Part shown: positions 1-63,156 of the stretch, one piece after another | How positions within the stretch are numbered: the stretch's first letter is position 1 | Layout of the letters: each line of letters starts with the position of its first letter | Virus record (IMG/VR): IMGVR_UViG_3300021963_009993 | Coordinates: 64,001 to 128,000 of that record | Reading direction: 5' to 3' (one strand) | Length of the DNA stretch: 64,000 nt | DNA from: a virus | Notes under the pieces: model-generated | The model's input: the letters and a program-made list of their open reading frames with translations, nothing else | Told to the model about the DNA's origin: nothing | The model's database searches: none | Position numbers and translations under genes: made by a program

Positions 1-257
1 GCATAATCGAATGATTTTGGAACTTTTGTATTTGGCACATATGGAAAATGAATTATATTATATTTTTGTTTTTTGGCATATTCTGATAACCATTTTCTTT
101 TAGAGTAATGTGGGTCTGGTATTATTACTTCAAAAGAATGACTGGTTATAAATGACAAATTATTTAATTGACTTTTCATAAGCCAGTCGTCTTCCATGCA
201 ATAAAATGGTGCCATAATAAAACTGTATTTTGGCTTTGAAACTTCATGGCAAATCAT
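1..257 (-). CDS. Partial ORF running off the window edge; probable glycosyltransferase family 2 (GT-A) N-terminus
   Basis: Manual translation from ATG at 257: MICHEVSKPKYSFIMAPFYCMEDDWLMKSQLNNLSFITSHSFEVIIPDPHY..., open to base 1. It resembles the GT2 start (KxSxIxP, then FEVIIxD) and overlaps the stop of the upstream acetyltransferase. Confidence 0.5.
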   Translation of the reverse strand, partial: MICHEVSKPKYSFIMAPFYCMEDDWLMKSQLNNLSFITSHSFEVIIPDPHYSKRKWLSEYAKKQKYNIIHFPYVPNTKVPKSFDY

Positions 258-834
258 AATTTTTTATTCTCCTACATGGGCAACCTACATATATTCCACT
301 CTCAGTAATGTTTTTAACAGCACATGAATTCATACCAAGAAAAACATCATTTTCTGTTTCTACTTTTTCTTTAATTGCAGAGTTGTTACCAATGTAGTTA
401 TTGTTTCCTATTTTGCAATTGCCAGAGACAATAGAACCGGGCATCATACTCAAAAAATTACCACAAACAGAATCGTGTCCTATTTGAGAAACCCTACTTA
501 AGAGCGAATGTTCACCAATAGAAACATTATTTGTTATGATGCAGTATGGGCCTATGTAGCTACCTTTTCCTATTGTGGAACCCTTGGAAATAATTGCAGT
601 TGGATGAATATAAGTAAAGAATTCAAAATGTTGAATTTTATTAGCTATTTTTTCTCTAAGCTTTGAATCGCCTAGTCCTATTAAAATTTGATATTCTTTT
701 GGACTAATGTCTTTTAAAGTCAAATTATCTTTTGTTTTATATTCTTCATCAACGATGAAAACACAATCTATTTGCATTACACTTGCTATTTCTTTTGCAT
801 GGCCTCCACTACCAAATATTGCATACTTTTTCAT
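244..834 (-). CDS. Sugar O/N-acyltransferase, NeuD/PglD-like (hexapeptide left-handed beta-helix)
   Basis: N-terminal IFGSGGHAKE, IGLGDSKLREK, IHPTAIIS, hexapeptide repeats, IGHD motif and C-terminal GIYVGCPCR. Confidence 0.88.
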   Translation of the reverse strand: MKKYAIFGSGGHAKEIASVMQIDCVFIVDEEYKTKDNLTLKDISPKEYQILIGLGDSKLREKIANKIQHFEFFTYIHPTAIISKGSTIGKGSYIGPYCIITNNVSIGEHSLLSRVSQIGHDSVCGNFLSMMPGSIVSGNCKIGNNNYIGNNSAIKEKVETENDVFLGMNSCAVKNITESGIYVGCPCRRIKNYDLP

Positions 835-1439
835 AATTTTAAATCATACCCCAAAAGTTTAAAATCCAAGTAATAAATGTCTGCTACTTTTTGCTTCAAC
901 TTTCTGTCGTAATAAGCCTCATAGAAATCATGAGTTGATTTGTTTTTGAATTCATTTGTATTTTTTATGTTAAATTTTTCTTCAATCATATCAAAACAAT
1001 CTTTAATATTTTCAAATTTAAATATATTCACATTAGAAAGAATGAAATTTGATTGAGGAATAAAATGGCTTTTTATGGAATGCTTCTCGCCCATTATTTT
1101 ATCAAAATTTTTATATAAGAAATCAATGTATTCATCAAATTTTAATTGACTGCAATCTACGATTCTTATATCATTTGATTCTTTTTTGAAGAAGTATTCA
1201 GATACCAATCTATCATATGGATTTCTAACTATTGCAAATTTATAAAACAACTCATATCGTTTTTCATTTTTCAATTTTACCATGTGGGCAGTAGCATGAT
1301 CCCATTCGATGTTGCCATCATTTTCATACAAAGCATCAGTCTTTTTGTACTTTTTAACATTAAACATATGGTTAATAGTAGTACCAGCTGTTTTTGGTAT
1401 GTGTATGAATATACAACTATTATCAAAAAAAACAGGCAT
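831..1439 (-). CDS. Sulfotransferase family 2 protein
   Basis: PAPS-binding FIHIPKTAGTTI, FAIVRNPYDRLVSEY, HFIPQ, FKFENI and YYLDFKLLGY. Confidence 0.85.
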   Translation of the reverse strand: MPVFFDNSCIFIHIPKTAGTTINHMFNVKKYKKTDALYENDGNIEWDHATAHMVKLKNEKRYELFYKFAIVRNPYDRLVSEYFFKKESNDIRIVDCSQLKFDEYIDFLYKNFDKIMGEKHSIKSHFIPQSNFILSNVNIFKFENIKDCFDMIEEKFNIKNTNEFKNKSTHDFYEAYYDRKLKQKVADIYYLDFKLLGYDLKL

Positions 1440-1440
1440 T

Positions 1441-2580
1441 TCAAACCTTTTCTGTGGTATTTAAAAGATTTTCAATATCTGTTTCCATAATTTTTACAGC
1501 AGAATCATTATCTCCATAACTTATGATTATCTTGTCTTTATTTTCATCATAGATCATTCCACAAGGAAAATTGCAAAGTATTTCACCATGTTTTCTGTAG
1601 TGTGGTTCTGTTGCTGCTTCAGCTGGCAAATATGTTCTTGTTGGAAATCTTAAAACCTTAAACGGTGGTTTTCCTTCAAAAACATAACATCCATTATCAT
1701 AGAAAAAAGTATTTTCTATTATTTGAGCCGTATGAAATGTATTTAAGAAATTTCCATCCTTCATTCTTATGGGGTTTGTATTGCCTCTGAAGAACTCTTT
1801 CATAAACCAATTGCTTTGCCAAGGTGCTTTGGATACCAATTCTATTGCTTCATCTTCAAAATCATTCATTTTCCATATTTTTTGTGAATTTATTTCACTT
1901 ATAAAATGCACCTTGTCTTCATACAAAAAAGGAACCCAGTTTTTTTGTCTTGAACCAATATTTTCTGGGGATATTCTAAATTGATCACCAAGAAAAAATT
2001 CCTCTTTATCAGCATCCATTATTATTCTGCCAGCAATATATTCTTTAGTATGATTTCCAAAATGATGCGAGTAAATCAAAAGTAGCTTATTTTCTACTGT
2101 CCAAATTAATCTTGGATCTGTGGTATCTCTCATTTCAAAATCAAAAAAAGATGTGTCTATCGGTTTATATTTTTCATTTAAAAAACAACCTTGGAATGTT
2201 TGTTCTGTGTTTCTATAAACACATATTATTTTATCTGATTTCTTGGATTTTACTATTGCACCGTTGAAACAACCTTCTTGTTTTAAATCGAGTCTATAAA
2301 AATTAGCTCCAACTGTTGTGATAAGATTCTTGGCAGGTCTAAGATTTAATTTTAATTCAAGATTGCTTGGAGTATTAATATAGAATTTTTGGAAATTAAT
2401 ATTTTTGTTAGTAGTTCTTTTTTTATCTATTCTTACAATTTTATCTTCATTTTCAGGAATAAAAGTTTCTTGATTTGGTTTTACAACAACATTTCTCTGA
2501 TTTCTTATATAAATCTGCATGTTTTTATTGTTGTTTGTGTCTTGTAGGTTTACAAAACCACCAGTTCTTCTTCTATACAT
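1441..2580 (-). CDS. Five-bladed beta-propeller glycoside hydrolase/phosphorylase/transferase (GH130/GT108/GT91-like)
   Basis: FNGAI, TDPRL, QKNWVPF, RGNTNP, FPCGM and IISYGDND blade motifs. Confidence 0.65.
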   Translation of the reverse strand: MYRRRTGGFVNLQDTNNNKNMQIYIRNQRNVVVKPNQETFIPENEDKIVRIDKKRTTNKNINFQKFYINTPSNLELKLNLRPAKNLITTVGANFYRLDLKQEGCFNGAIVKSKKSDKIICVYRNTEQTFQGCFLNEKYKPIDTSFFDFEMRDTTDPRLIWTVENKLLLIYSHHFGNHTKEYIAGRIIMDADKEEFFLGDQFRISPENIGSRQKNWVPFLYEDKVHFISEINSQKIWKMNDFEDEAIELVSKAPWQSNWFMKEFFRGNTNPIRMKDGNFLNTFHTAQIIENTFFYDNGCYVFEGKPPFKVLRFPTRTYLPAEAATEPHYRKHGEILCNFPCGMIYDENKDKIIISYGDNDSAVKIMETDIENLLNTTEKV

Positions 2581-13848: not shown

Positions 13849-14388
13849 ATGAGAACATTTCTTGAATTTTTCCATAATCATAATACAGAAGACACCTGCG
13901 AGAAACTAGTACTTTTAAAGAAGGTTTTAGAAAAAGGTGGTCTTCAGGTACATGATGGAACACATGATCATCTCAATCCTTTTTTGTTTGTGAAAGCATG
14001 GCCAAAACCAAATAGCTTTGAAGGAATAAGATTTTATATGAATGGAGACATACTTTCATTCAGAGTTCAAAAGTATCAAGAAACACAACCATATGGCCAA
14101 GCTTACCATATGGATGTTCAAAAGATGTTTGAAGATAATATTCTGAATAAGAAGGATGAAAAGGAAGCTTTGGCAGAGACATTCAAAGCAATAGACCAAA
14201 AAGTCAGAAAATTCTTCAGAGACAGCAAGAAAGCTGAAGATGAAATAGTTAAAACACAAATAACAAGTATGGATATTGAAGACAAGACAGATGATGGAAG
14301 GCTTAATAGAAAACCAGATGATGCACCTTTGATTGTGAATCCTTATGGTGGCGATTATTCAAATAAAGTTTATAGCAAAGGAAATTAA
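13849..14388 (+). CDS. Hypothetical protein with capsid-targeting-like N-terminus
   Basis: Starts MRTFLEFF; AAGGA SD. Confidence 0.7.
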   Translation: MRTFLEFFHNHNTEDTCEKLVLLKKVLEKGGLQVHDGTHDHLNPFLFVKAWPKPNSFEGIRFYMNGDILSFRVQKYQETQPYGQAYHMDVQKMFEDNILNKKDEKEALAETFKAIDQKVRKFFRDSKKAEDEIVKTQITSMDIEDKTDDGRLNRKPDDAPLIVNPYGGDYSNKVYSKGN

Positions 14389-14405
14389 TAAATTTTAATT
14401 AAAAT

Positions 14406-14921
14406 ATGCCAAGTGAAATAGACAATCTTTTTGTAGCAGCGCAAAATCTTGCCAACAAGACGGGAGTAAACAGGTATCAACCGGCATATCAAACACTAAG
14501 AAAAGGCACAATAATTCAATTTATTTATGACCTTGCGAAGCCCGGCCATGACAAGACACCTTTGGTTATAATAACTGGGATAAATGACAAGTATATTTGG
14601 GGTCTTAATTTACATTATCTATTGTTTCCAGAGATCAAGAGACTACTTCAAAGAAGAGGCTATAATGCCTGTAATAATCCAAATTTCTCATACGATAATA
14701 TCAAATCCGACGACTATATAGTATCAGCGTTCAGACAGTACAAAAAATTTGCAATTAGAAGAATGAATATTTTGAATTGTGACTATCTTCTGAATGTAAT
14801 GGCATCTGTCCGTGCTGTCGATCCACAAGAAATAGAAGCATTGCGCTCAAATATAAGAGAGCAACTTAACAGGACAATAAACCCAACATTTAAAAACATA
14901 AAACAGACAGAGATTAGATAA
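14406..14921 (+). CDS. DNA end protector protein (T4 gp2-like)
   Basis: FIYD...DKTPLVI...WGLNLHYL...RLL pattern characteristic of gp2. Confidence 0.7.
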   Translation: MPSEIDNLFVAAQNLANKTGVNRYQPAYQTLRKGTIIQFIYDLAKPGHDKTPLVIITGINDKYIWGLNLHYLLFPEIKRLLQRRGYNACNNPNFSYDNIKSDDYIVSAFRQYKKFAIRRMNILNCDYLLNVMASVRAVDPQEIEALRSNIREQLNRTINPTFKNIKQTEIR

Positions 14922-37960: not shown

Positions 37961-40900
37961 TTGGCTAATATTTTCCCATCACAATCTGTTTATCCAAGAC
38001 AGTACGACAGCGACAGAACCTTGTATAAGGTTTTCAACACCGCTGAAACCGTATTGTCTGAGGATTTAAAAGCATGGGCAACAGAAATTAGCATAGTTCC
38101 AGTTGCCGATGACAAAATGGATTTGTGGGATGATAATGGATTTGCCAACATCAGCGGAGAATTAATTTATTACGACAATGTTGTAAGAAATTACTATGGC
38201 AAAGCTGTAAAATTAATAAATTGTATCAGGAATCAAGGTGGCAAACCACCACAATTCAATAGTGCAGGTACTGATGTAAGAGGATTTGTAATAGCCGAAC
38301 ATCACAACCAACTTGCGAGAGCTATTGTCAACACGGAAAGATTTATTGCTTCCTTGGATCTTGAACTCCAAAGCTTGGCAAATTTGCAACTTACAAGTGA
38401 TGATTTTGGTGTTCCAGAAATAGATTTCACATATAGGGTTGTTAATGAAAATCCGAATGTTGGCACAACAATAAATTATAATTTAAATGTTAATACCCCA
38501 CAACCTTCTCCAACCCCGACACCGACACCCGGAACACCTACTCCAACCCCGACACCGACACCCGGAACTGGACCCGGAATAAACTTCAATATTGATTTTG
38601 GTGATGGAACCAATAACTCGACAGATCAAACAGGCTCGCATCTTTATACACCAAACAATACAGTTGACCCGAGTGTAACTGTTACTGGGCCAGGTTTCAT
38701 ATCTACACAGAGTGGCCCAGTAAGAATAGCACCAAGTCAACCAGCACAAGTTCCAGTTGTCGCCAATCCAGCATTGCCACAATGTGTTATTCCAGCAATA
38801 CCTGCTTTCCCAGACTATCAAGTAAATGTTCCAAACCTTACACCAGAACAACTACAATTCCCGCCGATAGTTTTTCCAGCCTTGGATATTGGGCCTTTTG
38901 GTCCTATTGTAATTCCATCAGAAATAAAAATTACCCCTCCATTTAATATTCCAAGCACAATATCATTCAAAGATATACCCAACCTTCCTTCCACAATTGA
39001 TATACAAATACCTGGAATTACAGTACCCGATGCCAATGGCAACTATATAGTACCTCCACAGTTCTTGCCAAACGGTTCACCTAATCCAGCGTATAATTCA
39101 AATACTGGGCCTTTTGGCATACCGAAAACAATAACAATCAACCCAGCAAGCATTAACATAAATCCAGCTTCAGTAAACATAAATGTCGATGTTAATAAAA
39201 CTGATAAGCAATGTTTCTTATGTTCAGATCCAGCAGTATGGCCACAAAGTAGTACAAATTTAGTAGCAAATCAATATCCTTTGCCAGTAAATGGAAGATG
39301 CATAGTTTGTGGTTCAGACGGCTCATTGGTAGGCAAACTTGGTACAAGCGATGTTTATTTGGATCAACTGGGTGACGATCAAGGCAATATCACAAGTCTT
39401 ACAGTAACAGTAAGTAATATTCAACTACCAGCAGGCAAGAGTTACGGTAGTCTTAGAATGTTATTAGTTAGCCCCAAAGGACAATCATGTTTGTTGATGG
39501 GTGGTTTTACAACAACTACTACCACAACAAGCACAACACCAAGACCAACAACTACAACCAGACGACCAAGCACAACTCCAGTTCCAGCAACTACGCCAAG
39601 ACCAACAACAACTACGCTACCTCCTTTAGCTGAAGTGCTTGATTCTATATCAGCAGCAGTAACAGGAACTCCTTGCCCTACAGCCACAACGCAAAACAAT
39701 ACTGGAAATGCAGAAACAACAGACACATCTTGCTATATTACGAATACAATACAAGAAGCAACACCAATACAAATAAGTTTTGATCCTGAAATATTTGTTA
39801 CTGGGCCTGTTTACTCTTTGGATTTATATTTGCTGAATCAAAGTGGACGAGTTCTAAACAATATCACATTGAGTTTTAGCACAGATGGCACAAGATTTTT
39901 TGATATCAATCAAGTAACTACTGGCTGGCAAAATAACTCATACAAAGCTGTAAGATTTTCTTTGGCAGCTGCAAACTTCACACCAATCAGAAATGCTGTA
40001 AATACATTTTACATCAAGAATTCTAGAAGCCTTCCGTTGCCCGGACAATCTCCAACACCAAATAGATTAGGTGCTGTAAAAGTGAGTGTTGCTGGGCTTC
40101 AGGGAGAAATTGCAAATCCAACGAAAATATGGCAAGGTCTTGGAAATTCAGCAGAAGGTGATACTCTTAAAAACTACATGTTGTATAGGGTTATTACCAG
40201 ATATTATCAAGCTAATCCAACAACAACCACCACCACAACTACAACTACTACCACCACCACAACTACTTCTACCACAAGTACTTCCACAAGCACGACAAGA
40301 CCACCCGATTTTCCAACAAATACAACAATAACATTCTCGGATACTGCACCAACAGACATTTACACAGGAAACGCCATATTATTTGCTGGGTCTGGTATGT
40401 ATAAACCGAGCCCCAACGGTAGACAATCTGTTGCACTTCCTATTGGTGCTGGGATTCCTTCTGCACCATATGGCACTAGTTTATCAGTTTTTTATGGTGA
40501 ACAGGTGGATGGTTATACACCACCAGCACCAACACCAGGAACATCAACAAGTTCAACCACATCTACAACACCATCTCCTTCACAAAGATGGAGATTGTAC
40601 ATAGCAATTGATGATGCTACACTAAATGGAAGTCTTACACGATTTTGTATAAAAGCCAGCGTTACTACTTCTTCAAGTTGCTCAGGTGCGCTTCCTTTTT
40701 CAGGATCAACAACCTCTACAACTACAACTACAACTACAACTCCCACTCCCACTCCCACAACATCAACAACACCACCTACACCCACACCTACACCCACACC
40801 CACACCATCGCCCACACCCACACCAGTACCAACACCCACACCAGTACCAACACCCACACCAGTACCAACACCAGTACCAACACCAACACCAACACCTACA

Positions 40901-41950
40901 CCTACACCTACACCTACACCTACACCTACACCAACGCCTACTACTGGTTGTGAAACATGTCGAGATTGTCAAATCAATACTTGTTGTTATGAGTGTAGCC
41001 CAATAAATGGTTTTTATTATTCAACAGCATCTGGTAACAAATGTGACATTGGTTGTTACTGTCCAATAATTACTGGATTTACACCTTGTACTTATCCTTG
41101 CGTAACATGTTTGCCTAATTGTGAATGCGCCACCACAACATTACCACCTTGTAGTGCGCCAACAGGATATTGCAGATATGAATGTTCTAGTAATAACACA
41201 TGGCAGTCTTATTGCAATAATTGTGAAAACGGCCAGAATTGTCCTTCTGGCATAATAGGAACTTCTTGTAGTACAGTTGGTGTTTTCAAAGATGAAAGAT
41301 GTGTTGGAAGCGGAACAACATCAACAACCCCTGTGCCGACAACGACAACGACAACGACAACATCAACATCGACAACCCCAACTCCCACAACATCAACTAC
41401 CCCACCTACACCTACACCTACACCTACACCTACACCTACACCTACTCCAATTATTGGCAACTGGGTATTACAATTCTCAACAGCTTGTTCACAACCTTTA
41501 AATCCAAGTTGTTGTGCAGTACCAACAGCAGATTGTACTTCATCAATATTTGGAACATCTACTGAAACAAACTGTAATCCGGGGGCATGTGGCGGTCAAA
41601 GCCTTGGTTGCACATGGGTTTGCCAAGCAGCATTTGCAGCAACTGCAAAAGAATTCAAACATAATTGGGTGAATATAACAGAACCAAACATACCAACACC
41701 AGAAAATAGGTCTGAACCAGTCAATATCTCTAGTTCATTAGAAAATAACATCAACAATCTTGGAATCCAAATTCAAGAAATTCCACAAACACCTTTATCA
41801 TTTGATAGTGATAAAGTTCAAAATGTAGAATACAGAGACTTATCGAAAAATATGTTAAACACAACTATGAACACAAATACTGTAAAATTTGTTTCAGCTA
41901 ACACTAATCTTAATGTTGACACAGAGGATTTGTTTGGCGAGAAAAAATGA
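37961..41950 (+). CDS. Mucin-like fibre/adhesin: anchor module, PKD-like domain, split P-domain, Thr/Pro tracts, Cys-rich domains
   Basis: AEHHN module, IDFGDG, multiple poly-T/PT tracts, 22 Cys in about 118 aa near the C-terminus. Confidence 0.75.
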   Translation: MANIFPSQSVYPRQYDSDRTLYKVFNTAETVLSEDLKAWATEISIVPVADDKMDLWDDNGFANISGELIYYDNVVRNYYGKAVKLINCIRNQGGKPPQFNSAGTDVRGFVIAEHHNQLARAIVNTERFIASLDLELQSLANLQLTSDDFGVPEIDFTYRVVNENPNVGTTINYNLNVNTPQPSPTPTPTPGTPTPTPTPTPGTGPGINFNIDFGDGTNNSTDQTGSHLYTPNNTVDPSVTVTGPGFISTQSGPVRIAPSQPAQVPVVANPALPQCVIPAIPAFPDYQVNVPNLTPEQLQFPPIVFPALDIGPFGPIVIPSEIKITPPFNIPSTISFKDIPNLPSTIDIQIPGITVPDANGNYIVPPQFLPNGSPNPAYNSNTGPFGIPKTITINPASININPASVNINVDVNKTDKQCFLCSDPAVWPQSSTNLVANQYPLPVNGRCIVCGSDGSLVGKLGTSDVYLDQLGDDQGNITSLTVTVSNIQLPAGKSYGSLRMLLVSPKGQSCLLMGGFTTTTTTTSTTPRPTTTTRRPSTTPVPATTPRPTTTTLPPLAEVLDSISAAVTGTPCPTATTQNNTGNAETTDTSCYITNTIQEATPIQISFDPEIFVTGPVYSLDLYLLNQSGRVLNNITLSFSTDGTRFFDINQVTTGWQNNSYKAVRFSLAAANFTPIRNAVNTFYIKNSRSLPLPGQSPTPNRLGAVKVSVAGLQGEIANPTKIWQGLGNSAEGDTLKNYMLYRVITRYYQANPTTTTTTTTTTTTTTTTSTTSTSTSTTRPPDFPTNTTITFSDTAPTDIYTGNAILFAGSGMYKPSPNGRQSVALPIGAGIPSAPYGTSLSVFYGEQVDGYTPPAPTPGTSTSSTTSTTPSPSQRWRLYIAIDDATLNGSLTRFCIKASVTTSSSCSGALPFSGSTTSTTTTTTTTPTPTPTTSTTPPTPTPTPTPTPSPTPTPVPTPTPVPTPTPVPTPVPTPTPTPTPTPTPTPTPTPTPTTGCETCRDCQINTCCYECSPINGFYYSTASGNKCDIGCYCPIITGFTPCTYPCVTCLPNCECATTTLPPCSAPTGYCRYECSSNNTWQSYCNNCENGQNCPSGIIGTSCSTVGVFKDERCVGSGTTSTTPVPTTTTTTTTSTSTTPTPTTSTTPPTPTPTPTPTPTPTPIIGNWVLQFSTACSQPLNPSCCAVPTADCTSSIFGTSTETNCNPGACGGQSLGCTWVCQAAFAATAKEFKHNWVNITEPNIPTPENRSEPVNISSSLENNINNLGIQIQEIPQTPLSFDSDKVQNVEYRDLSKNMLNTTMNTNTVKFVSANTNLNVDTEDLFGEKK
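40710..40945 (+). repeat. In-frame simple-sequence tracts (3-, 6- and 18-nt units) encoding poly-Thr and (PT)n/VPTP
   Basis: acaact, acacct and ccagtaccaacacccaca-type units; similar tracts at ~38510-38570, 39506-39625, 40218-40296 and 41315-41450. Confidence 0.85.
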
Positions 41951-42843
41951 AAACAGAAAAGATATTTACCAAAAATGTAAAAATCAAAAACATTAGGGGC
42001 GAAGATCAGAATTTTATTCTAAAACAACATAAAACCAACAATGAATATTTTAAAATAGAAGATATTTGGGTTAGAAATTTTCTTAAAAAGAAAGCAATAC
42101 CATTAGATTTGAATAGATTTTTCAAGGAAGAAGAAATCAAGTTGATAATAGACAATGAAATAAAAAATTCAAAAATGAATTTGACAAATCTTTATCAAGA
42201 AAATTTTAATTATGAAAAGGCAATAATAATATCAGACGGTTATGGTTTTGAAAAACATATTGATCTTATTGAATCATTGCCACCAAGAACATGTTTAATA
42301 ACCGTAAACTTGGCAGCCAAGTTATGGAATGCAAAAGTACTTCCCACATTCATGCTAATATCCAATCCCGATTATTCGTGCAAATCTCAAATGCCAATAA
42401 GAGTTTTTCCAAGGTTGTTGGCTAGCAGAAGAACAAACAATGATTTTCTTTCAAATTACAAAAATCTTGTCTATCTTTACGATGTTGTTCCAGATGAATG
42501 GTATCAATCTCCAAATTCAAAAGCATCAGATCTTTTTATTGATGAATACAGAAATCCAATATGTGCTGCTCTTGGTTTGTGTAATTACTTTGGTGTAAAC
42601 AAAATTTTTCTTGGTTATTGTGCTGATGCCTACACAGAGGAACGGGCTGGAACTGTAAAAATACAAGATGGTTTTTACAACTATCCACAACAAAATTTAG
42701 CAAACAAGATAATTGATGCTAGTTTGCTTTGGTATAAATTAGGAGTGCCGGGACTGAAAGTTTTTCACACAGGAGTGGAAAAAGCTTTCAGTTTTTCCCG
42801 GCACTTAGATCAAGAAAACTTCAATAAAGCAATACTACTTTGA
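41947..42843 (+). CDS. Maf/DUF115 (MptE-like fold) putative glycosyltransferase
   Basis: KAIIISDGYGFEKHIDLI...CLITVNLAAK...PTFMLISNP and ICAALGLCNYFGVNKIFLGYCAD match the MAF_flag10 pattern; ATGA overlap with the fibre gene stop. Confidence 0.55.
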   Translation: MKTEKIFTKNVKIKNIRGEDQNFILKQHKTNNEYFKIEDIWVRNFLKKKAIPLDLNRFFKEEEIKLIIDNEIKNSKMNLTNLYQENFNYEKAIIISDGYGFEKHIDLIESLPPRTCLITVNLAAKLWNAKVLPTFMLISNPDYSCKSQMPIRVFPRLLASRRTNNDFLSNYKNLVYLYDVVPDEWYQSPNSKASDLFIDEYRNPICAALGLCNYFGVNKIFLGYCADAYTEERAGTVKIQDGFYNYPQQNLANKIIDASLLWYKLGVPGLKVFHTGVEKAFSFSRHLDQENFNKAILL

Positions 42844-43323
42844 TGGTTTAGCATCCTTTTGTGGCACTACCATTTTGCCTGTTTCTGGACAGCTAAAATC
42901 TTCAATCGCTTTATGATATCCTTGTTCGTAATTACTTTCAGAACTTTCTTTTCCACTAGCTAGCCCTTTGTGAAATGCTGCTTGACTAAGCAAGCTAAGA
43001 AAGCTCATATTGTTTTCCAAGTTTTTCGGATAATTTTCTGCTATTGAGATAATTTTTTCTATTGACTCATCGTCAATATTTTTTTCAGTATTTGAATAAA
43101 TCATCAACATGGCTTCAACCTTGCCATCTTGTTTCCCACTTTCTCTAGCTGATTGTAAATCAGCTAGAGAATAATTTACTTTTTGTTCATTTATCAAATT
43201 TTCGGAAATAGACTCAATGAACAAAATTTTATACTTTTCCTTTTCTTGGTACTGCCAATAAGAAACAACACAGAAAAGAAAAGTAATTATGCCAGCAGTT
43301 ATGCCGAATAACCATGACTTCAT
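42835..43323 (-). CDS. N-terminally anchored membrane protein (paralog A)
   Basis: N-terminal hydrophobic helix; GKQDG, FHKGLASG and YEQGYHKA motifs. Confidence 0.7.
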   Translation of the reverse strand: MKSWLFGITAGIITFLFCVVSYWQYQEKEKYKILFIESISENLINEQKVNYSLADLQSARESGKQDGKVEAMLMIYSNTEKNIDDESIEKIISIAENYPKNLENNMSFLSLLSQAAFHKGLASGKESSESNYEQGYHKAIEDFSCPETGKMVVPQKDAKPSK

Positions 43324-43334
43324 GTCAGTACTCC

Positions 43335-43856
43335 TTATTTCTTCTCTTGTGCTGGTTTCTCTTCATTCTTTTGACCATCTTCTTGCTTTTTGAGTTGTGA
43401 GTCAATGAACTGCTTGATAGCCCCCTGAACATTATCACCGCTCTTGAAAATGGTGTTGAATGCTTTCATGGTTTCATTTTGTCCAGCCGTGAAACCTTTT
43501 TGATAGCCTTTTTCAAATTCCATTTCGCCAACAAAACTAGTTTGCTCTAATCCCCTACTGTATCCAGAATGCCAAATGTTGCTAATCTGAGATTCAGCTG
43601 GATCAATTTTATGAACCAGAGATAGAATACCCTCTTGATATCCTTGCATTCTTGCCAAGTCTGTGTTTTGTGATTGGATATCATTCATTTTTGTCCACAA
43701 AAGTTCATTAGCCATATCTTCACTAATTTTGCTTCTTTTTTCTGCCACTTCTTGTAGGAACTCAGACTTTTTATTCGTAGTAAATTGAAAATAGTTATAA
43801 CCTATAGATGCTGCTAAAGCTGCACTCATGGTGATGATGGTAAGAAAAGACTTCAT
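43335..43856 (-). CDS. N-terminally anchored membrane protein (paralog B)
   Basis: Start reassigned to 43856 after AGGAG; hydrophobic helix; GYQEG, WHSGYSRG and FEKGYQKG motifs. Confidence 0.7.
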   Translation of the reverse strand: MKSFLTIITMSAALAASIGYNYFQFTTNKKSEFLQEVAEKRSKISEDMANELLWTKMNDIQSQNTDLARMQGYQEGILSLVHKIDPAESQISNIWHSGYSRGLEQTSFVGEMEFEKGYQKGFTAGQNETMKAFNTIFKSGDNVQGAIKQFIDSQLKKQEDGQKNEEKPAQEKK

Positions 43857-43869
43857 GATCTTGCTCCTA

Positions 43870-43888
43870 GTGTGACTATGCACACATT
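43870..43888. promoter_or_regulatory. 19-bp palindromic element, copy 2 (putative operator)
   Basis: Identical to 6584-6602; immediately upstream of the SD of 43335..43856. Confidence 0.55.
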
Positions 43889-43951
43889 AAAGTTGGTGGA
43901 TTTCCAAATTCATTTTGCAAAATAACATGAATCAAAATATAGTCAAGCAGA

Positions 43952-44308
43952 TTAGATTTTTTTTATTGGTTGCAACATAATTTTTTGTATTTTTGGCTGA
44001 GGTATTCTAAGCAATTCATTTTTATAATTTAAAAATTTAGGAGCCATATTTATTGGTAAATTTTTATAACCATATTTCCTTAATGTATCACAAAATTCAT
44101 TGAAATCTTTACAATCTTGCACAATTAATTCCCAAAGCATTCTTTGTGGTTGATAAAAATTCTTTAGCTTATGGTAATCTGCATCGGGTAGATTTAATTC
44201 TTCCAGAGAATCAATTCTATGCAAGTATGATTTGGTGCTTGCATTTTCACAAACACCAAGCAATTCTACTGCTGTCTTATCTCTTCTTGCCATAAAAAAA
44301 TACTGCAT
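43952..44308 (-). CDS. Hypothetical protein
   Basis: 118-aa ORF with AAAGGTT SD-like sequence. Confidence 0.6.
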   Translation of the reverse strand: MQYFFMARRDKTAVELLGVCENASTKSYLHRIDSLEELNLPDADYHKLKNFYQPQRMLWELIVQDCKDFNEFCDTLRKYGYKNLPINMAPKFLNYKNELLRIPQPKIQKIMLQPIKKI

Positions 44309-44434
44309 TTCTAACCTTTCATTTTCTTGGATGACTGAAGAAGAATTTTGAATAATTCTTCTAATAAAATATCTTTTTGAATAGAATTCTCCCCAAGCAT
44401 TTCTATTAAAGAATCAAATGATTCATTAGTTGAT

Positions 44435-45013
44435 TTGATAATTTCCTCTTTACTCGGTGTTTTTATGTCTTCCATAGAAAATCTTTCGATTATTAAAAAT
44501 AATTTACCTATTATTTATAAGGGATCTGATGTTTGTATGGCAGCCAAATTATTGATATTAAAGAAAAATATTAAAACAAAATACCCAGAACTAAAAATCT
44601 ATTTCGTTTTTGATGAGAAAATTATAAAATATTTAGAGTTAACAAACACCATCTCAATACAGGATTATGAAAAGTATCAAGGAAATTTCGTCAAAGAATG
44701 CATAGTCGATAGTAGTCTGGAAGACTTTTGTGAAAAAAATGACATTGATATGTTTGTTTGTCATTCAAGAATCAACAATTCATTCCAAGATGAAAATATA
44801 ATTGAAACAATTCTTACCAAACATACAAATGATTTTTTCTTAAAAACTATAGATAATGGTGTTGATTCTGTGTTTTTTGGCAGAGAATCTCCAGAAATCA
44901 TAGAAGCAGCGTACATGGGAAACAAGGTGGTTTTGATTGAAAGCGGTTCTGGAACGGTTTCTTTTCAGAAAATGTTTCCAGATACAAGAATAATAAGCGG
45001 CGATAATAGATAA
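44435..45013 (+). CDS. Degenerate GT9-like protein
   Basis: DVCMAAKLL...KTKYPELKIYFV and GVDSVFFGRESPEIIEAAYMGNKVV resemble GT9 N- and C-terminal motifs; start probably ~44465. Confidence 0.4.
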   Translation: MIISSLLGVFMSSIENLSIIKNNLPIIYKGSDVCMAAKLLILKKNIKTKYPELKIYFVFDEKIIKYLELTNTISIQDYEKYQGNFVKECIVDSSLEDFCEKNDIDMFVCHSRINNSFQDENIIETILTKHTNDFFLKTIDNGVDSVFFGRESPEIIEAAYMGNKVVLIESGSGTVSFQKMFPDTRIISGDNR

Positions 45014-45035
45014 GTATAAGACAATATTAAAGGAG

Positions 45036-45596
45036 ATGCCGATGAGTGTGTTCAAAGTAGTATTAAACAACAAATATATGGGTCAACTTGATATTGACCC
45101 ACGAACAGGTGCCCAAGAGGTTCCATCCATTCAACGCACCATGTTTGCGCCCGGACCACACGGTACTTTCCGTGAAATTGCCGATGGCACAACATTCACC
45201 GATTGTAATTACTGGAAAACATACGCTTATCCAGCACTACCCCATGACCAAGCTTTTATACAAGTGCTTGTAGATGATGGTAGTATTTGGACTCCAAACG
45301 ATGAATTTAACACAGTTCCAACGGTAAATACAGGAACAATAGCAGCAGCAGGTTCTGTAACTATTGACTATACCTTGAACGGTGGAAGCTATGCTGTTTT
45401 CACACAGATAAGCAACACAGGCAGCAATCCCATGACAGTCGTACTAAATGGTTCATCCGCTCCATTTACCTTGGCTGGTGGTAATACTCAGGTTTTCAAC
45501 AAGGGAGACTTGAATATTTCAGCAATCACACTTGCATCTACTCTAGGAACAACCTACACAGTAATCGCAGGTACTACAGCTGTTTGCTACACCTAA
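45036..45596 (+). CDS. Putative virion protein (beta-rich, G/T/S-rich C-terminal domain)
   Basis: AAGGAG SD; phage-structural composition; followed by a terminator. Confidence 0.6.
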   Translation: MPMSVFKVVLNNKYMGQLDIDPRTGAQEVPSIQRTMFAPGPHGTFREIADGTTFTDCNYWKTYAYPALPHDQAFIQVLVDDGSIWTPNDEFNTVPTVNTGTIAAAGSVTIDYTLNGGSYAVFTQISNTGSNPMTVVLNGSSAPFTLAGGNTQVFNKGDLNISAITLASTLGTTYTVIAGTTAVCYT

Positions 45597-45619
45597 CAAA
45601 AAATTCAAAATATAAATCG

Positions 45620-45656
45620 AAAGAGGGGAAGAAAATTCTTCCCCTCTTTTTCTTTT
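45620..45656 (+). terminator. Intrinsic terminator
   Basis: aaagaggggaag-aaaatt-cttcccctcttt followed by a T-tract. Confidence 0.8.
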
Positions 45657-45661
45657 AAATT

Positions 45662-46615
45662 ATGAAGTTTTTCAATCCTGTGATTCATAATAAGAATGTC
45701 TCTATTAAAGATTTTTATGAAATAAAAAACAAAATATGCATTGTTAGATCCAGCGGAGGTCTTGGAGATATCGTTAATATGAGAATGATATTTCAAGATC
45801 TAAAATTAAAATACCCACAGTTTCATGTAACATGGGCTATTCCACATGGCTATAAGGATGCAGGGGCAAACCATCCATATGTTGATAATTTAATTGACTA
45901 TCAAAGCATAAATCTCAAAGAATATCTAAAAATTTATAATTTAACAAATGCTTGTACAAAATATGAATGGAGATTGGGAAAAGACAATGACAAGAATAGG
46001 GCAGACATATGGGCGAATCATGTAGGATACAACTTAGATCATGCAAATACATTTATGCCTAATTATGATTGTTATTTTACAAATATAAGAAAAAAACTTC
46101 TAAAACTTGGATGGAATGGTGATAAAAAAATAATTGCTTTGGCACCCAAATCAGCTTTGGCTACTAAAAACCTAACTTTTGAAATTTGCAAGAAAATAAA
46201 AAACCTTACTGAAAGATATTTTGTTTTTGCAATACACAACGCACCAATAATAGAAATGTCAGAACTGAAAATACCAGTTTTCTGCGGGGACACTCTAGCT
46301 GAAAGTATGGCATCAATACAGATGTCTGATGGTGTAATTACAACAGATACTGGCCATATGCATATTGCCGGTGGATATGGAAAACCAACTATGGCTATAT
46401 TTTGTTACACAAATGGGAAGATAATAACAAAACATTATCCAAGTGTTCATGTTGTTCAAAAACATTTTGATGAATTCCCTGAATGGTGTGGTCCATGCAA
46501 CAATTCAAATAACTGTCACAAAACAAAACTAATACCTAAACCTTGTATGGAAGAAATAACAGAGGAAATGTTGTACAATTGCTGGGAAAATGTCGAAAAA
46601 TTACTAAATATATAA
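45662..46615 (+). CDS. Glycosyltransferase family 9 (heptosyltransferase-like)
   Basis: GGLGDIV...LKLKYPQFHVTW, ANHPYVD, IALAP, ITTDTGHMHIAGGYGKPTMAIF. Confidence 0.85.
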   Translation: MKFFNPVIHNKNVSIKDFYEIKNKICIVRSSGGLGDIVNMRMIFQDLKLKYPQFHVTWAIPHGYKDAGANHPYVDNLIDYQSINLKEYLKIYNLTNACTKYEWRLGKDNDKNRADIWANHVGYNLDHANTFMPNYDCYFTNIRKKLLKLGWNGDKKIIALAPKSALATKNLTFEICKKIKNLTERYFVFAIHNAPIIEMSELKIPVFCGDTLAESMASIQMSDGVITTDTGHMHIAGGYGKPTMAIFCYTNGKIITKHYPSVHVVQKHFDEFPEWCGPCNNSNNCHKTKLIPKPCMEEITEEMLYNCWENVEKLLNI

Positions 46616-46860: not shown

Positions 46861-46914
46861 ACTTTGCATAACTACTATAAAGTAAGGAATAAAAATAATA
46901 AGAGGAGTGAAAAA

Positions 46915-47922
46915 ATGTCTAATATAGGATTCGACTTTGGTACTTACAATTTAGTTTCTTGCAAAAGAAGCGATGACAAAAAATTCTCTTACAAAAGAGA
47001 AATCAATGCTTTCTTGGATCTACCTCTTGAGAATCGCTTTGTTTTTAACATGATGAAGACAGCTGGGGTTCCTTTAATTGAACGAGAAAATGTAGCATAC
47101 GCACTTGGAGAAAGTGCTGTAAACATGGCCTATACTTTGCCAACATTAGAATTAAAGCGTCCCATGAAAGATGGTTGTGTAAACCCAAAAGAAAAAGATG
47201 CATTTCAAATCATGAGCATCATGGCACATAGTTTGATTGATCCAATTGAAAAGGATGGAGCAAATCTTTATTACAGCGTTCCAGCCAATGCAATTAATCA
47301 AGAAACAGATGCTGATTATCACAACAAAGTTTTGGAAGCCATATTCAGGGGCTATGAATCAGACGAGGGCTACAAAGTAAATCCCAAGCCCGTAAACGAA
47401 GCTCTAGCCCTCGTATATGCAGAACTTCAAAAGAAGGCATTTACTGGCATCGGTGTTAGCTGTGGTGCAGGCATGGTAAATGTTTGTTACGCCATGTATG
47501 GAAATCCAATATTCCAATTTGCAATAGTTAACTCTGGTGACTGGATTGACAAGCAAGCTGCTAAAGCAACAGGCGAAAGCCCAACATTCATTAACAAAGA
47601 AAAGACCAAGGTTGATTTGGGTGCTGCTCCTACAAACTTAGTTGAGAGAGCAATAATAACTCAGTATAGATTGATGATTGAGAAGACAATTCAAGGAATT
47701 AAAGAAGGATTAGCTACTTCCAAAAAAGCGATTAAATCAGAACATCCAGTTGACTTTATAGTTGCTGGTGGTACTGCAAGTGCCAAAGGTTTTACCGAAA
47801 TTTTCAGCGAAACTTTAAAATCAGCTGAATTATCGATTCCTGTTGGAGATGTTATTCGCCCAGCAGATCCACTTTACTCCGTAGCCAGAGGCTGCCTAAT
47901 AGCTGCCGAAGCCGCAAATTGA
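46915..47922 (+). CDS. Actin-like ATPase (ASKHA fold; volactin/MreB-like)
   Basis: Phosphate-1 IGFDFGTYN, RPMKDG, connect-1 VNEALA, phosphate-2 GVSCGAGMVNV, adenosine IVAGGTA, connect-2 PLYSVARGCL; AGAGGAG SD before ATG 46915. Confidence 0.88.
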   Translation: MSNIGFDFGTYNLVSCKRSDDKKFSYKREINAFLDLPLENRFVFNMMKTAGVPLIERENVAYALGESAVNMAYTLPTLELKRPMKDGCVNPKEKDAFQIMSIMAHSLIDPIEKDGANLYYSVPANAINQETDADYHNKVLEAIFRGYESDEGYKVNPKPVNEALALVYAELQKKAFTGIGVSCGAGMVNVCYAMYGNPIFQFAIVNSGDWIDKQAAKATGESPTFINKEKTKVDLGAAPTNLVERAIITQYRLMIEKTIQGIKEGLATSKKAIKSEHPVDFIVAGGTASAKGFTEIFSETLKSAELSIPVGDVIRPADPLYSVARGCLIAAEAAN

Positions 47923-60642: not shown

Positions 60643-63156
60643 ATGCCGACTCCAATATGGTCCGATTATTTTAAGACTTTTGATTTTGCTTTTACCAAAG
60701 ATCCACTAAGTAGGACTTTAAACACCAAAAATATAGTTGGTGCCGGTATTGCACAACCAGACTCCATACCCAGCCTAAGTCCAGATGGTAGCTTTTGGAG
60801 CGGAACTGATTCAAGATTAATTAGACTTCGTGAAACAAACGATTTTATTGACCTGTCAACTGTAACAAACAGGCAAAGCAGATACAAGGAATACGAAAGA
60901 CTTATTACCATTCCAGAAATCGAAATGGCATTGAATGTCTTCGCAGACGAAGCTTGTGTTGCTGGCAGAACAAAAGTCGCAACTCCATTCGGAATGATAC
61001 CAATAGAAAAATTGGCAGAAACACATGCGAATGAAAAATTCTTGGTCTACTGCTATGATTTCAAAAAGAAAGATTACACACTTGGATGGGGGCATAGTCC
61101 ACGAAAAACAAAAACTGAAAAAACAATAATCATAATTTTCACAGATGGTACTGATTTGGAATGCACAGCAGATCATAAGATTCTTCTGAGAGATGGAACT
61201 TGGATTGCAGCAGGGGAAATAAGAGAAGAAATGGAAATCATGCCGTTTTATAGGTGTGAACCAAGAAAATATATGTCAAAACTGAATGAAAAACAGTTTC
61301 CCAGAATATACACCCACACAAAAGGATGGATTCACGAAAGACAATTAGTCGATGAATGGAGAACAGGAAAAGAAAACGAAAGGCAACAACTCGTAAACAA
61401 GTTCTGTCGCCATGTTTGTGAAGGATTAACTGTAGCAAAATTGGAAGAAATATTAAATACAAACTACATCACAATAACAAAAAACCTTAAAAAAGAAGGT
61501 TTTTGTATTGACGAATTAAGATGGCTTGGCAAAAAGAAAGATAGAAAAACAGTAAGATCAGTTATAGAAGGCAGAACAACAGATGTTTATGATTTGACTG
61601 TTGAAGAACACCACAATTTTTGCACAGATACAGTTGTCGTACATAATTGTCAAAAAGATGCTAACGGCAATATACTCAAAATTCATTGTGAAAACGATGA
61701 TGTAAAAGAAGAACTTGAATTTCTGTTCTTCCATAGATCAATGATAAACATCAATAGAAGAGCATGGGCAGATTTCAAATCTCTTTTGCTTTATGGGGAT
61801 CTTTTTTATGAAATAATAATCAATCTAGATAATCCTCAAGATGGTGTGTTAAGGCTGTTAAAACTACCACCAGAATCGATGTACAGAATTGAAACTACAA
61901 AAGGAAAAGTAGTTGAATTCCAACAATCTAAAGAAGGCCCAGATTACCAAAGCTTGACAAGGGCTCCAGTCACTCAAGCAACTGATCAAGAAATCATGAT
62001 GGCAACAGCAATACGATTTGCTCCCGAACAGGTAATCCATGCCAGAATTGGTGATGATAGGAAAATGTTCTATCCATATGGCGTTTCGATGGTTGAAGCT
62101 GCCAGAGGGCCAGCACACCAATTAAGACTCATGGAAGATGCCATGTTGGTTTATAGACTTTCAAGAAGCCCTGAAAGAAGAGTTTTCTACATAGATGTCG
62201 GACAACTTCCACCATTCAAAGCAGAAGCATTTATAGAAAAAATGAAAGATCAATTCAGGAAGAAAAAAATATCCACAAATAGAACAGGTATGACTGGGCC
62301 TAATTCCGTTGAGGAAAGATACCATGCACCAGCGGTAGATGAGGATTACTGGTTGCCCATAAGACCAAATTCCAACACAAAAATTGAAACACTTCCTGGT
62401 GCCCAAAATCTCGGTGAAATAGATGATGCAATCTATTTCAGAAACAGATTGTTTACAGCTTTGCAATTCCCCAAAAATTATTTCAATGTAGAAGATGCAT
62501 CAGTAACAAAAATAACACTATCAGCCCAAGATGTTCGTGTTGCAAGACTTGTCGAAAGACTACAAGCTCCTTTTGAGGATGCTATGTGGGAAGTTGCACA
62601 CAGACATTTGCAACTTAGAGGTTTCCCACCAGACACATATACCGATCTGCAAGTAAGAATGACTGCTCCATCTGAATGGCGTGAACTAAGCAGAGCAGAA
62701 GTTGTAAACACAAGAATTCAAAATGCCGGTGCTTTGAAAAGCGGAAACTTATTATCAGATTATGACATCCTTACAAAATGGATGATGTATTCTGAAGATG
62801 AGGCAAAAACACTCATCGCAAGACTAAAGATGCAGAAAATTGAAGATGCCAAACTTCAAGTTCTTGCTCAAAATCCGGCACTTCTTGGCGTTGGAATACC
62901 AGCAGATGATGAATCACAGGAAGGCGAAGAAATTGGCGCAACACCAGAAGGACCAAGTCCACAGCTTGCACCACCCGGAGAAGAGAACATACCACAAGAA
63001 CCAAGTGGTTTTGAGGGACAACAAGCACCAAACACAAGCGTTGGTGGCGCACCCATTCCATTCCCAAGCTCAAAGGATATTCAGAAATATGATATGGAAA
63101 TCAATAATTATGCCAATGAAGAAGATTATGAAAGCCCGGATTTTGATGTTGAATAG
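60643..63156 (+). CDS. Portal protein (T4 gp20-like) containing an intein
   Basis: RYKEYERL...IEMALNVFADEA, LRLMEDAMLVYRLSRSPERRVFYIDVGQLP, EDYWLP, TKIETLPGAQNLGEIDD. Confidence 0.93.
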   Translation: MPTPIWSDYFKTFDFAFTKDPLSRTLNTKNIVGAGIAQPDSIPSLSPDGSFWSGTDSRLIRLRETNDFIDLSTVTNRQSRYKEYERLITIPEIEMALNVFADEACVAGRTKVATPFGMIPIEKLAETHANEKFLVYCYDFKKKDYTLGWGHSPRKTKTEKTIIIIFTDGTDLECTADHKILLRDGTWIAAGEIREEMEIMPFYRCEPRKYMSKLNEKQFPRIYTHTKGWIHERQLVDEWRTGKENERQQLVNKFCRHVCEGLTVAKLEEILNTNYITITKNLKKEGFCIDELRWLGKKKDRKTVRSVIEGRTTDVYDLTVEEHHNFCTDTVVVHNCQKDANGNILKIHCENDDVKEELEFLFFHRSMININRRAWADFKSLLLYGDLFYEIIINLDNPQDGVLRLLKLPPESMYRIETTKGKVVEFQQSKEGPDYQSLTRAPVTQATDQEIMMATAIRFAPEQVIHARIGDDRKMFYPYGVSMVEAARGPAHQLRLMEDAMLVYRLSRSPERRVFYIDVGQLPPFKAEAFIEKMKDQFRKKKISTNRTGMTGPNSVEERYHAPAVDEDYWLPIRPNSNTKIETLPGAQNLGEIDDAIYFRNRLFTALQFPKNYFNVEDASVTKITLSAQDVRVARLVERLQAPFEDAMWEVAHRHLQLRGFPPDTYTDLQVRMTAPSEWRELSRAEVVNTRIQNAGALKSGNLLSDYDILTKWMMYSEDEAKTLIARLKMQKIEDAKLQVLAQNPALLGVGIPADDESQEGEEIGATPEGPSPQLAPPGEENIPQEPSGFEGQQAPNTSVGGAPIPFPSSKDIQKYDMEINNYANEEDYESPDFDVE
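60955..61647 (+). mobile_element. 231-aa intein in the portal with degenerate homing-endonuclease insert
   Basis: Block A CVAGRTKV, block B LECTADHKILL, block F VYDLTVEEHHNF, block G VVVHN followed by +1 Cys. Confidence 0.9.

Follow-up and report, generated by a model that had tools for sequence, protein, structure and literature searches.

The subject of this report is a tail-fibre gene of a very large phage and the small gene that overlaps its end, which encodes a relative of the Maf proteins known to modify flagellin; both lie in a 64,000-nucleotide stretch (the window) that comprises bases 64001-128000 of the 181,260-bp IMG/VR virus record IMGVR_UViG_3300021963_009993, and positions below are those of the window unless the record or another locus is named. 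Our central finding is that the Maf-like gene is a near-obligate partner of this fibre family, and that the coupling is to the N-terminal 350 amino acids of the fibre or to the fibre as a whole and not to its mucin-like part, because most partner fibres are free of tracts rich in Thr, Ser and Pro (T/S/P tracts). As to what the protein does, the reading that we prefer, tentatively and with rather less than even confidence, makes it a transferase of a new family derived from Maf, expressed late and coupled to the fibre; the Thr/Pro-Thr (T/PT) tracts found in this fibre might then serve as acceptors without being required. The two genes and the relevant parts of the fibre are as follows.

37961..41950, + strand: distal tail-fibre/appendage protein, 1329 amino acids, from translation; no Pfam family
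37961..39010, + strand: fibre N-terminal module, amino acids 1-350; 36-homologue alignment with 22 invariant columns
38483..38584, + strand: PT tract 1, amino acids 175-208, 10 Thr and 12 Pro
39494..39631, + strand: Thr-rich tract 2, amino acids 512-557, 21 Thr
40196..40339, + strand: poly-Thr tract 3, amino acids 746-793, 27 Thr and 5 Ser
40505..40600, + strand: T/S/P tract 4, amino acids 849-880
40664..40966, + strand: T/PT tract 5, the longest, amino acids 902-1002, 43 Thr and 33 Pro
41297..41467, + strand: T/PT tract 6, amino acids 1113-1169, 27 Thr and 13 Pro
41947..42843, + strand: mini Maf-like protein (P0002), 298 amino acids; reduced to the central Maf_flag10/MptE-like domain, whose pocket is remodelled

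The physical link between the two genes is the overlap ATGA at 41947-41950, in which TGA ends the fibre and ATG begins P0002, and here an earlier sequence-only reading of this DNA, which had described a gene of MAF_flag10/DUF115 pattern overlapping the fibre stop codon, was correct on both counts, since P0002 gives a sub-threshold match to PF01973 and has a Maf-like fold. The pairing was then counted over 80 IMG/VR loci that encode relatives of P0002. When the Maf-like gene is taken as the starting point, every one of the 62 loci with readable upstream DNA has, abutting or overlapping it, a homologue of fibre residues 1-350, mostly with gaps of -64 to +45 nucleotides, and it is these residues that are kept in 62/80 loci while the remainder of the fibre is not. 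Starting instead from the fibre N-terminal module, a Maf-like gene lies downstream in 40 of 41 testable loci, meaning those with a complete fibre open reading frame (ORF) and at least 1 kb of DNA after it; the sole exception has three extra ORFs after the fibre and then reaches the end of its contig. Assemblies break within the fibre gene in 38 of 79 related contigs, which suggests that repeats or population hypervariability interrupt them there.

In this record, the mucin-like character of the fibre is striking enough. The ORF starts with TTG, in agreement with the start of the family consensus, and encodes an N-terminal anchor with a PKD-like module (approximately amino acids 1-350), a Pro-rich part, the Thr/PT tracts and finally Cys-rich modules with a C-terminal tail, the whole containing 227 Thr, 112 Ser, 162 Pro and 41 Cys. 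If a tract is taken as a stretch with at least 70% T/S/P, the six tracts together hold 164 Thr and Ser, so that the earlier claim of well over a hundred clustered acceptors is borne out, and at 17% Thr this is the highest of the ORFs of at least 300 amino acids in the 181-kb record (median 5%). A second giant Thr-rich ORF, of 2068 amino acids and 14% Thr, is found at 169554-175760 (- strand) of the record, outside the window.

Such tracts are nevertheless present in only about a quarter of the fibres that are paired with a Maf-like gene, and strict ones are confined to the 17 closest loci and one other small group; moreover, the 17 are essentially one clade, and hence amount to roughly one independent observation. 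The sequence-only reading had proposed, as a check, looking for co-occurrence of Maf-like genes with Thr-rich fibres, and the counts do not bear this out: the pairing itself holds at 40/41, but tract-free fibres keep the gene, and we have accordingly rejected the Thr tracts as the thing that the enzyme tracks. Mirror-tree style comparisons, in which Maf-like identity was correlated (Spearman) with that of PKD748 (0.72), the fibre N-terminus (0.61), the fibre C-terminus (0.62) and actin (0.33), leave the hypotheses unseparated.

P0002 has a Maf-like fold, and is nearer to Maf than to the MptE diphosphokinases. An AlphaFold (AF2) model built on a 60-sequence alignment is of high quality (predicted local distance difference test score, pLDDT, 95; predicted template modelling score, pTM, 0.93), and in Foldseek it ranks the Maf of M. 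magneticum (5mu5) first, with an E value of 1.7e-6. Using VIA, residues 1-298 match 5mu5 residues 181-513 with Z 20.1 over 242 aligned residues at a root-mean-square deviation of 3.6 Å, compared with Z 13.0 for the MptE 6-hydroxymethyl-7,8-dihydropterin diphosphokinase (HPPK), 10.2 for SteA, 6-8 for sialyltransferases and 6-7 for thiamin pyrophosphokinases. The comparison with Maf and GT29/GT42 structures that the sequence-only reading had proposed thus favours Maf, with the sialyltransferases distant, and the MptE-type or unrelated fold that it had named as the outcome contrary to its proposal is not what was found.

At the level of sequence the relationship is far more strained. Against PF01973 (MptE-like, formerly MAF_flag10/DUF115) P0002 scores E 1.8e-5 and 25 bits, under the 34.6-bit cut-off, and only 29 of 60 family members match at E <= 0.01, the best of them at 2.9e-8; PHROGs and NCBIfam contain no match, and a search of PDB sequences with either P0002 or its 60-member profile finds none even at E <= 10. 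Clustering at 90% leaves about 100 homologues and clustering at 50% gives 170 representatives, nearly all of them 270-300 amino acids long. In a profile search over 1.84 billion proteins, the first matches outside the family are proteins of 600-630 amino acids with strong PF01973 domains; one outgroup (P0242) and a 403-residue protein (P0245) also give weak matches to the Maf N-terminal domain (PF20157), and the outgroups P0241 and P0242 match 5mu5 at about 1e-8. Indeed, hhalign of the P0002 family alignment against Maf-architecture proteins gives 98.7% and E 1.9e-16, and its structural neighbours in the atlas are bacterial Maf clusters together with viral MptE-like domains fused to GT2 or methyltransferases. 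The protein, then, belongs to the Maf_flag10/MptE-like superfamily as a single-domain branch specific to phages, and is not a true Maf.

The conservation pattern within this branch speaks for an enzyme. Invariant or near-invariant polar residues (R43, N70, E71, N74, S96-D97-G98, N121, N139-N140-P141, S160/R162, D199-D200-Y201-R202-N203, C225 and Y246) sit, by DSSP on the model, where the parallel strands end C-terminally or where the next helix begins. The C-terminal strand ends are where Rossmann-type enzymes hold their nucleotide substrates, and such polar conservation on the substrate side of the fold implies that the pocket has been rebuilt and not abandoned.

The setting of the gene pair is that of a tail module. 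The record encodes a large terminase, a gp5-like baseplate spike and a T4-type portal that an intein interrupts, and it represents part of a phage genome several hundred kb in size; its closest annotated relative is a 595-kb metagenomic phage. The annotated phage collection contains a single relative, an unannotated 595-kb metagenomic phage. Metagenome-assembled genome contigs gave no host, being five contigs of unrelated taxa that are probably mis-binned phage. A + strand block of tail and baseplate genes spans approximately 12.5 kb to 42.8 kb of the window and is closed by the fibre gene, its last large gene, and then by the Maf-like gene. Across the 80 loci, the order is three appendage genes (PKD342, PKD748 and the fibre), the Maf-like gene, an ORF of about 100 amino acids, variable minus-strand genes, a 118-amino-acid gene, a GT9-like gene of about 200 amino acids, a 186-amino-acid gene, GT9, a volactin-type actin and a 152-amino-acid gene. 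The corresponding genes of the window, with the portal, are these.

43952..44308, - strand: 118-amino-acid module gene, with a homologue at the same position in 69/80 loci; no family match
44435..45013, + strand: GT9-like truncated, divergent protein, 192 amino acids, with the D-T-G..H motif changed; related to GT9 at profile level only
45036..45596, + strand: 186-amino-acid protein with a C-terminal jelly-roll domain, kept in 69/80 loci
45662..46615, + strand: GT9-family heptosyltransferase-like GT-B glycosyltransferase, 317 amino acids; PF01075 at 29.4 bits (cut-off 22)
46864..47922, + strand: volactin-family actin-like protein, PF25216 at E 1.8e-63, kept in 65/80 loci
60643..63156, + strand: T4-type portal with intein, PF07230 and PF14890

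The sequence-only reading had placed a GT9, a GT9-like and a GT2-like gene within 9 kb, and it was right about the first and, at profile level, about the second; the third was not found, no ORF in the stretch matching a GT2 family. The gene at 45662-46615 is a GT9: beyond Pfam, it matches TIGR02193 at E 2e-13, with TIGR02193/TIGR02195 matches that reach both lobes, and its family profile finds WaaC in the PDB (2gt1/2h1f, 7e-8) as well as 3tov and 1psw, with WaaF also matched. The D-T-G-x-x-H donor motif is kept (D229 and H234 invariant, T230 near-invariant), and after this donor-binding motif comes a C-terminal set of four invariant or near-invariant cysteines (C276, C279, C285 and C295; C-x2-C-x5-C-x9-C), through which, to judge from the sequence, the family probably binds a metal. 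It is present in 56 of the 68 loci with enough downstream DNA. We also looked for a tie between this GT9 and the TibC-type protein heptosyltransferases and saw none: the profile finds WaaC/WaaF and no TibC chain in the PDB at E <= 10. For the truncated protein at 44435-45013, pairwise BLASTP is insignificant (E 0.089), and it is a profile of 32 positional orthologues that connects it to GT9 (hhalign 94.2%, E 1.1e-7, 196 columns, both lobes). The 186-amino-acid protein encoded between the two is probably a virion or appendage subunit, judging from its AF2 model (pLDDT 87), which VIA matches to the A223 turret protein of Sulfolobus turreted icosahedral virus (STIV) at Z 10.2 and to Bacillus Ena pilus subunits at Z 8-9.

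Several small genes complete the neighbourhood. Directly 3' of the Maf-like gene, 74/80 loci have the + strand ORF of about 100 amino acids (for example, 10897-11205 of locus L001), whose position recalls that of GlfM, though its sequence is unlike a four-helix bundle. In the window, two minus-strand genes (42835-43323 and 43335-43883), variably present in 12/80 and 17/80 loci respectively, encode small proteins with charged tails and, by eye, a hydrophobic and possibly transmembrane N-terminal stretch.

In addition, approximately 38 kb upstream of the fibre there is an island of sugar-tailoring genes, which extends from window positions 244-2580 (- strand) into the part of the record just upstream of the window (14324-18257 of locus L083).

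244..834, - strand: PglD/NeuD-like hexapeptide N-acyltransferase; Hexapep E 5.6e-13, PglD_N E 3e-8
831..1439, - strand: sulfotransferase, PF03567, E 5e-19
1441..2580, - strand: GH130-like protein, PF04041, E 1e-8

The acyltransferase is the NeuD/PglD-like gene that the sequence-only reading had reported from elsewhere in the window. The island further holds a DegT aminotransferase, an S-adenosylmethionine-dependent methyltransferase, a polysaccharide pyruvyl transferase and a 391-amino-acid protein without a family, with neither a glycosyltransferase nor a nucleotidyltransferase seen next to these genes.

How, then, might the system work? In the reading that we prefer, P0002 would be produced alongside the fibre in the cytoplasm of the host, translationally coupled to it at the end of a late tail/baseplate operon. 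Before assembly it would add a group to the fibre or to an adjacent tail protein, and this group would most plausibly be a sugar taken from an activated donor that the host supplies. In this fibre the Thr/Pro tracts would be plausible additional acceptors, not what the enzyme is tied to, and the nearby GT9 may extend or complement the action of P0002. What the analysis shows is the fold, the pairing, the conservation pattern and the identity of the GT9, while catalysis, donor, acceptor and glycan alike are inferred; supporting context comes from a phage whose genes also include sugar transferases for acetyl, amino, sulfo, methyl and pyruvyl groups. The lack of donor-synthesis genes implies that the sugar donor, if any, usually comes from the host; Mafs accept CMP-Kdo (bioRxiv 10.1101/2020.06.03.131540), and many Gram-negative hosts would offer this as well as ADP-heptose, which the GT9 could use. 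A bolder version, that the fibre-adjacent family is a new Maf-derived glycosyltransferase which, with the GT9, builds a tail-fibre glycan from host CMP-Kdo and ADP-heptose across a clade of half-megabase phages, we regard as improbable; were it true, it would represent a dedicated cytoplasmic protein-glycosylation system for phage appendages in Gram-negative hosts.

A substantial body of evidence weighs against the transferase that we prefer, and it begins with the pocket itself. Residues of the M. magneticum Maf (MmMaf) were placed by recovering the 5mu5 numbering from sequence alignments, in combination with hhalign, and columns were counted over 60 family sequences. The MmMaf loop G279-S-G-P-S283 falls on P0002 D97-G-Y-G-F101 (S-D-G-[YF]-G-F in the family), E324 on N140 (in that column N 56, S 3, T 1), D415 on A226 (D 34, S 25, A 1) and the serine of the Maf GG(S/T)V motif on the invariant N203; the column after A226 is D227 (D 35, E 9, N 6, H 3), which on this alignment could stand in for D415 after a one-residue shift. 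E324 and D415 are described as critical in MmMaf in the mutagenesis reported by a preprint on these enzymes (bioRxiv 10.1101/2020.06.03.131540), and CbMaf and GkMaf need their equivalents (D272 and D357 in CbMaf) plus a conserved Ser (bioRxiv 10.1101/2020.06.03.131540). The 60-sequence alignment contains no conserved His of the kind that serves as a base in sialyltransferases, and P0002 is without both the N-terminal (PF20157) and the C-terminal or TPR (tetratricopeptide-repeat) acceptor-binding domains of Maf. A relative (G003) encodes a second mini Maf/MptE-like protein, of 220 amino acids, that keeps the G-S-G-P-T loop and G-C-D, and its gene overlaps one for a CMP-sugar cytidylyltransferase (CTP_transf_3; locus L084, 740-2127, - strand), so that canonical and remodelled versions coexist in this phage group and the fibre-adjacent family is the divergent one. 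Around 30 partner fibres (610-930 amino acids, 10-16% Ser+Thr) have no tracts and yet retain the Maf-like gene, and no ORF of about 100 amino acids follows that gene (which ends at 42843) anywhere in the 181-kb record. NeuB, CTP_transf_3 and short-chain dehydrogenase/reductase (SDR) epimerase/dehydratase families were not found in the record, nor was any GT2 (PF00535) at E <= 0.01, although with CheckV completeness of approximately 38% the absence of a gene there is not final; NeuB and CTP_transf_3 were likewise not found in a 532-kb relative that is rated 100% complete and has the fibre/Maf-like pair.

Several of these observations also speak for the principal alternative, namely that P0002 is a non-catalytic fibre partner: a Maf-derived pseudoenzyme that assists assembly of the N-terminal module or serves it as an attachment adaptor, or else a sugar-binding (lectin-like) tail subunit. 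Both acidic residues that are essential in Maf and the GxGPS loop have gone, donor-synthesis genes are missing from record and 532-kb relative alike, the gene is retained whether or not the fibre has Thr/Ser tracts, and its place directly after the fibre, with overlapping stop and start, is the classic one for a fibre assembly protein; Mafs are, besides, known from the literature to bind their filament substrate. What we find difficult to reconcile with a mere scaffold is that conservation is concentrated on the loops of the nucleotide/substrate pocket, and a chaperone for the variable tip can be excluded because the invariant residues of P0002 stay the same from locus to locus, whereas the fibres show no relationship in their distal parts. 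The partner may still be a lectin-like binder, and all in all we judge a non-catalytic partner possible, if somewhat unlikely.

We are more sceptical of two further explanations. The model put forward in the sequence-only reading, a true Maf-type O-transferase that decorates the hundred-plus Thr/Ser of the tracts with pseudaminic acid, legionaminic acid (Leg) or Kdo, has in its favour that Maf is the closest fold, that the tracts are real and extreme, that all 17 of the closest homologues adjoin tract-bearing fibres, that the DegT-like and PglD-like genes resemble early steps of the Leg pathway and that host CMP-Kdo is usable by Mafs (bioRxiv 10.1101/2020.06.03.131540). However, those 17 loci form one close clade alongside some 30 tract-free partners, neither the Maf catalytic residues nor the CMP-loop motif is kept, a NeuB-type synthase and CMP-sugar synthetase are absent from the record and the complete relative, and known Maf targets are folded flagellin domains, not mucin-like repeats (PMC11339370). 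The broader proposal that the phage glycosylates its own fibre through a Maf-like enzyme is supported in its fold and its genetic coupling to the fibre, and lacks support in its tie to the Thr tracts, its catalytic residues with GxGPS and its donor genes; nonulosonic-acid transfer onto the tracts is one possibility among several, not one that we favour, and we think it improbable. A small-molecule enzyme, such as an ATP-dependent diphosphokinase of MptE/thiamin-pyrophosphokinase type, or else a transferase acting on a substrate other than the fibre (a host envelope glycan or phage DNA), we also consider improbable. MptE HPPK is the second-best structure and shares the Pfam family, thiamin pyrophosphokinases also match (Z 6-7), and the conserved acidic D97, D199, D200 and E71 could bind Mg-ATP; set against this, Maf is much the closer (its 242 aligned residues including an N-terminal beta element), the nearest sequence outgroups have Maf architecture, the GxGPS loop that is lost is common to MptE and Maf, and there is little reason why a metabolic kinase should, in all 80 loci, keep a fixed place closing the tail-fibre operon.

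We believe that the pair is worth attention on either view. If P0002 is active, the fibres of widespread, very large phages would be decorated by an unrecognised Maf/sialyltransferase-like branch, with consequences for host recognition, fibre stiffness, protease resistance and the reading of receptor-binding proteins from sequence; if instead it has no activity, we would have before us a plain example of a tail that has taken over a glycosyltransferase fold for a structural or sugar-binding role. In both cases, the fibre/Maf-like pair makes it easy to recognise the distal fibre gene in poorly annotated huge-phage genomes.

Among known systems, MptE, the archaeal 6-hydroxymethyl-7,8-dihydropterin diphosphokinase (8sd5), shares PF01973, the core fold (195 residues in the alignment at Z 13.0) and the single-domain size with P0002, which differs in having the extra N-terminal beta element that aligns with Maf, in having lost the shared glycine loop and in belonging to a tail module, not to cofactor synthesis. 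The GT42/GT29 sialyltransferases (Cst-II 1ro7, Cst-I 2p56, ST3Gal 2wnf and ST8SiaIII 5bo8) are relatives of Maf that use CMP-sugars independently of metal, and have a modified GT-A/Rossmann core; the match (Z 6-8) is a distant one, and the P0002 family has no conserved His to act as catalytic base. The 'YNP' and 'R..SG' motifs of Cst-II may align with N140-P141 and R202, which we offer as a lead only. As regards virion glycosylation by phages, the literature searched covers mycobacteriophages only, using other enzymes: Che8 and its relatives are reported to glycosylate their own virion proteins (Freeman et al. 2023, PMC10527164, as cited in PMC11256854). The common element is phage glycosyltransferases that decorate, here as a proposal, the phage's own structural proteins, whereas enzyme families, targets (capsid and tail tube in theirs) and hosts differ, and it is in the mycobacteriophages that glycans have been demonstrated.

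Bacterial adhesins offer a second parallel. The serine-rich-repeat adhesins, with their GtfA/B systems, undergo comparable glycosylation, and as in those and in TibC/Aah, a repeat-rich surface adhesin is here encoded with candidate dedicated soluble glycosyltransferases. The TibC/Aah autotransporter heptosyltransferases hyper-glycosylate adhesins in the cytoplasm, and TibC has an iron finger (PMC4358343); the four-Cys motif of the phage GT9 sits roughly where that finger does, a resemblance in position only.

The closest comparison is with Maf itself, as known from M. magneticum (5mu5), C. botulinum, G. kaustophilus and the Maf-1/Maf-2 of Shewanella, in a literature that, in full-text searches, concerns flagellar systems only, with nothing on phage fibres. 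P0002 is half the size of these proteins or less, is without their outer domains, has the GxGPS loop, E324, D415 and the GG(S/T)V serine all replaced, falls under the Pfam cut-off, is unlinked to a nonulosonic-acid pathway and is partnered with a phage fibre instead of flagellin. GlfM, an adaptor, is encoded downstream of maf-2 (bioRxiv 10.1101/2023.12.03.569772), and the small ORF directly after the Maf-like gene in related loci, missing in this record, is reminiscent of it. Characterised Mafs modify exposed Ser/Thr of folded flagellin domains and not mucin-like repeats (PMC11339370), and they work in the cytoplasm on the filament subunit (bioRxiv 10.1101/2020.06.03.131540; PMC11339370). What P0002 has in common with them is the central Maf_flag10 fold, a cytoplasmic location and a gene that adjoins the gene of a filament or appendage subunit.

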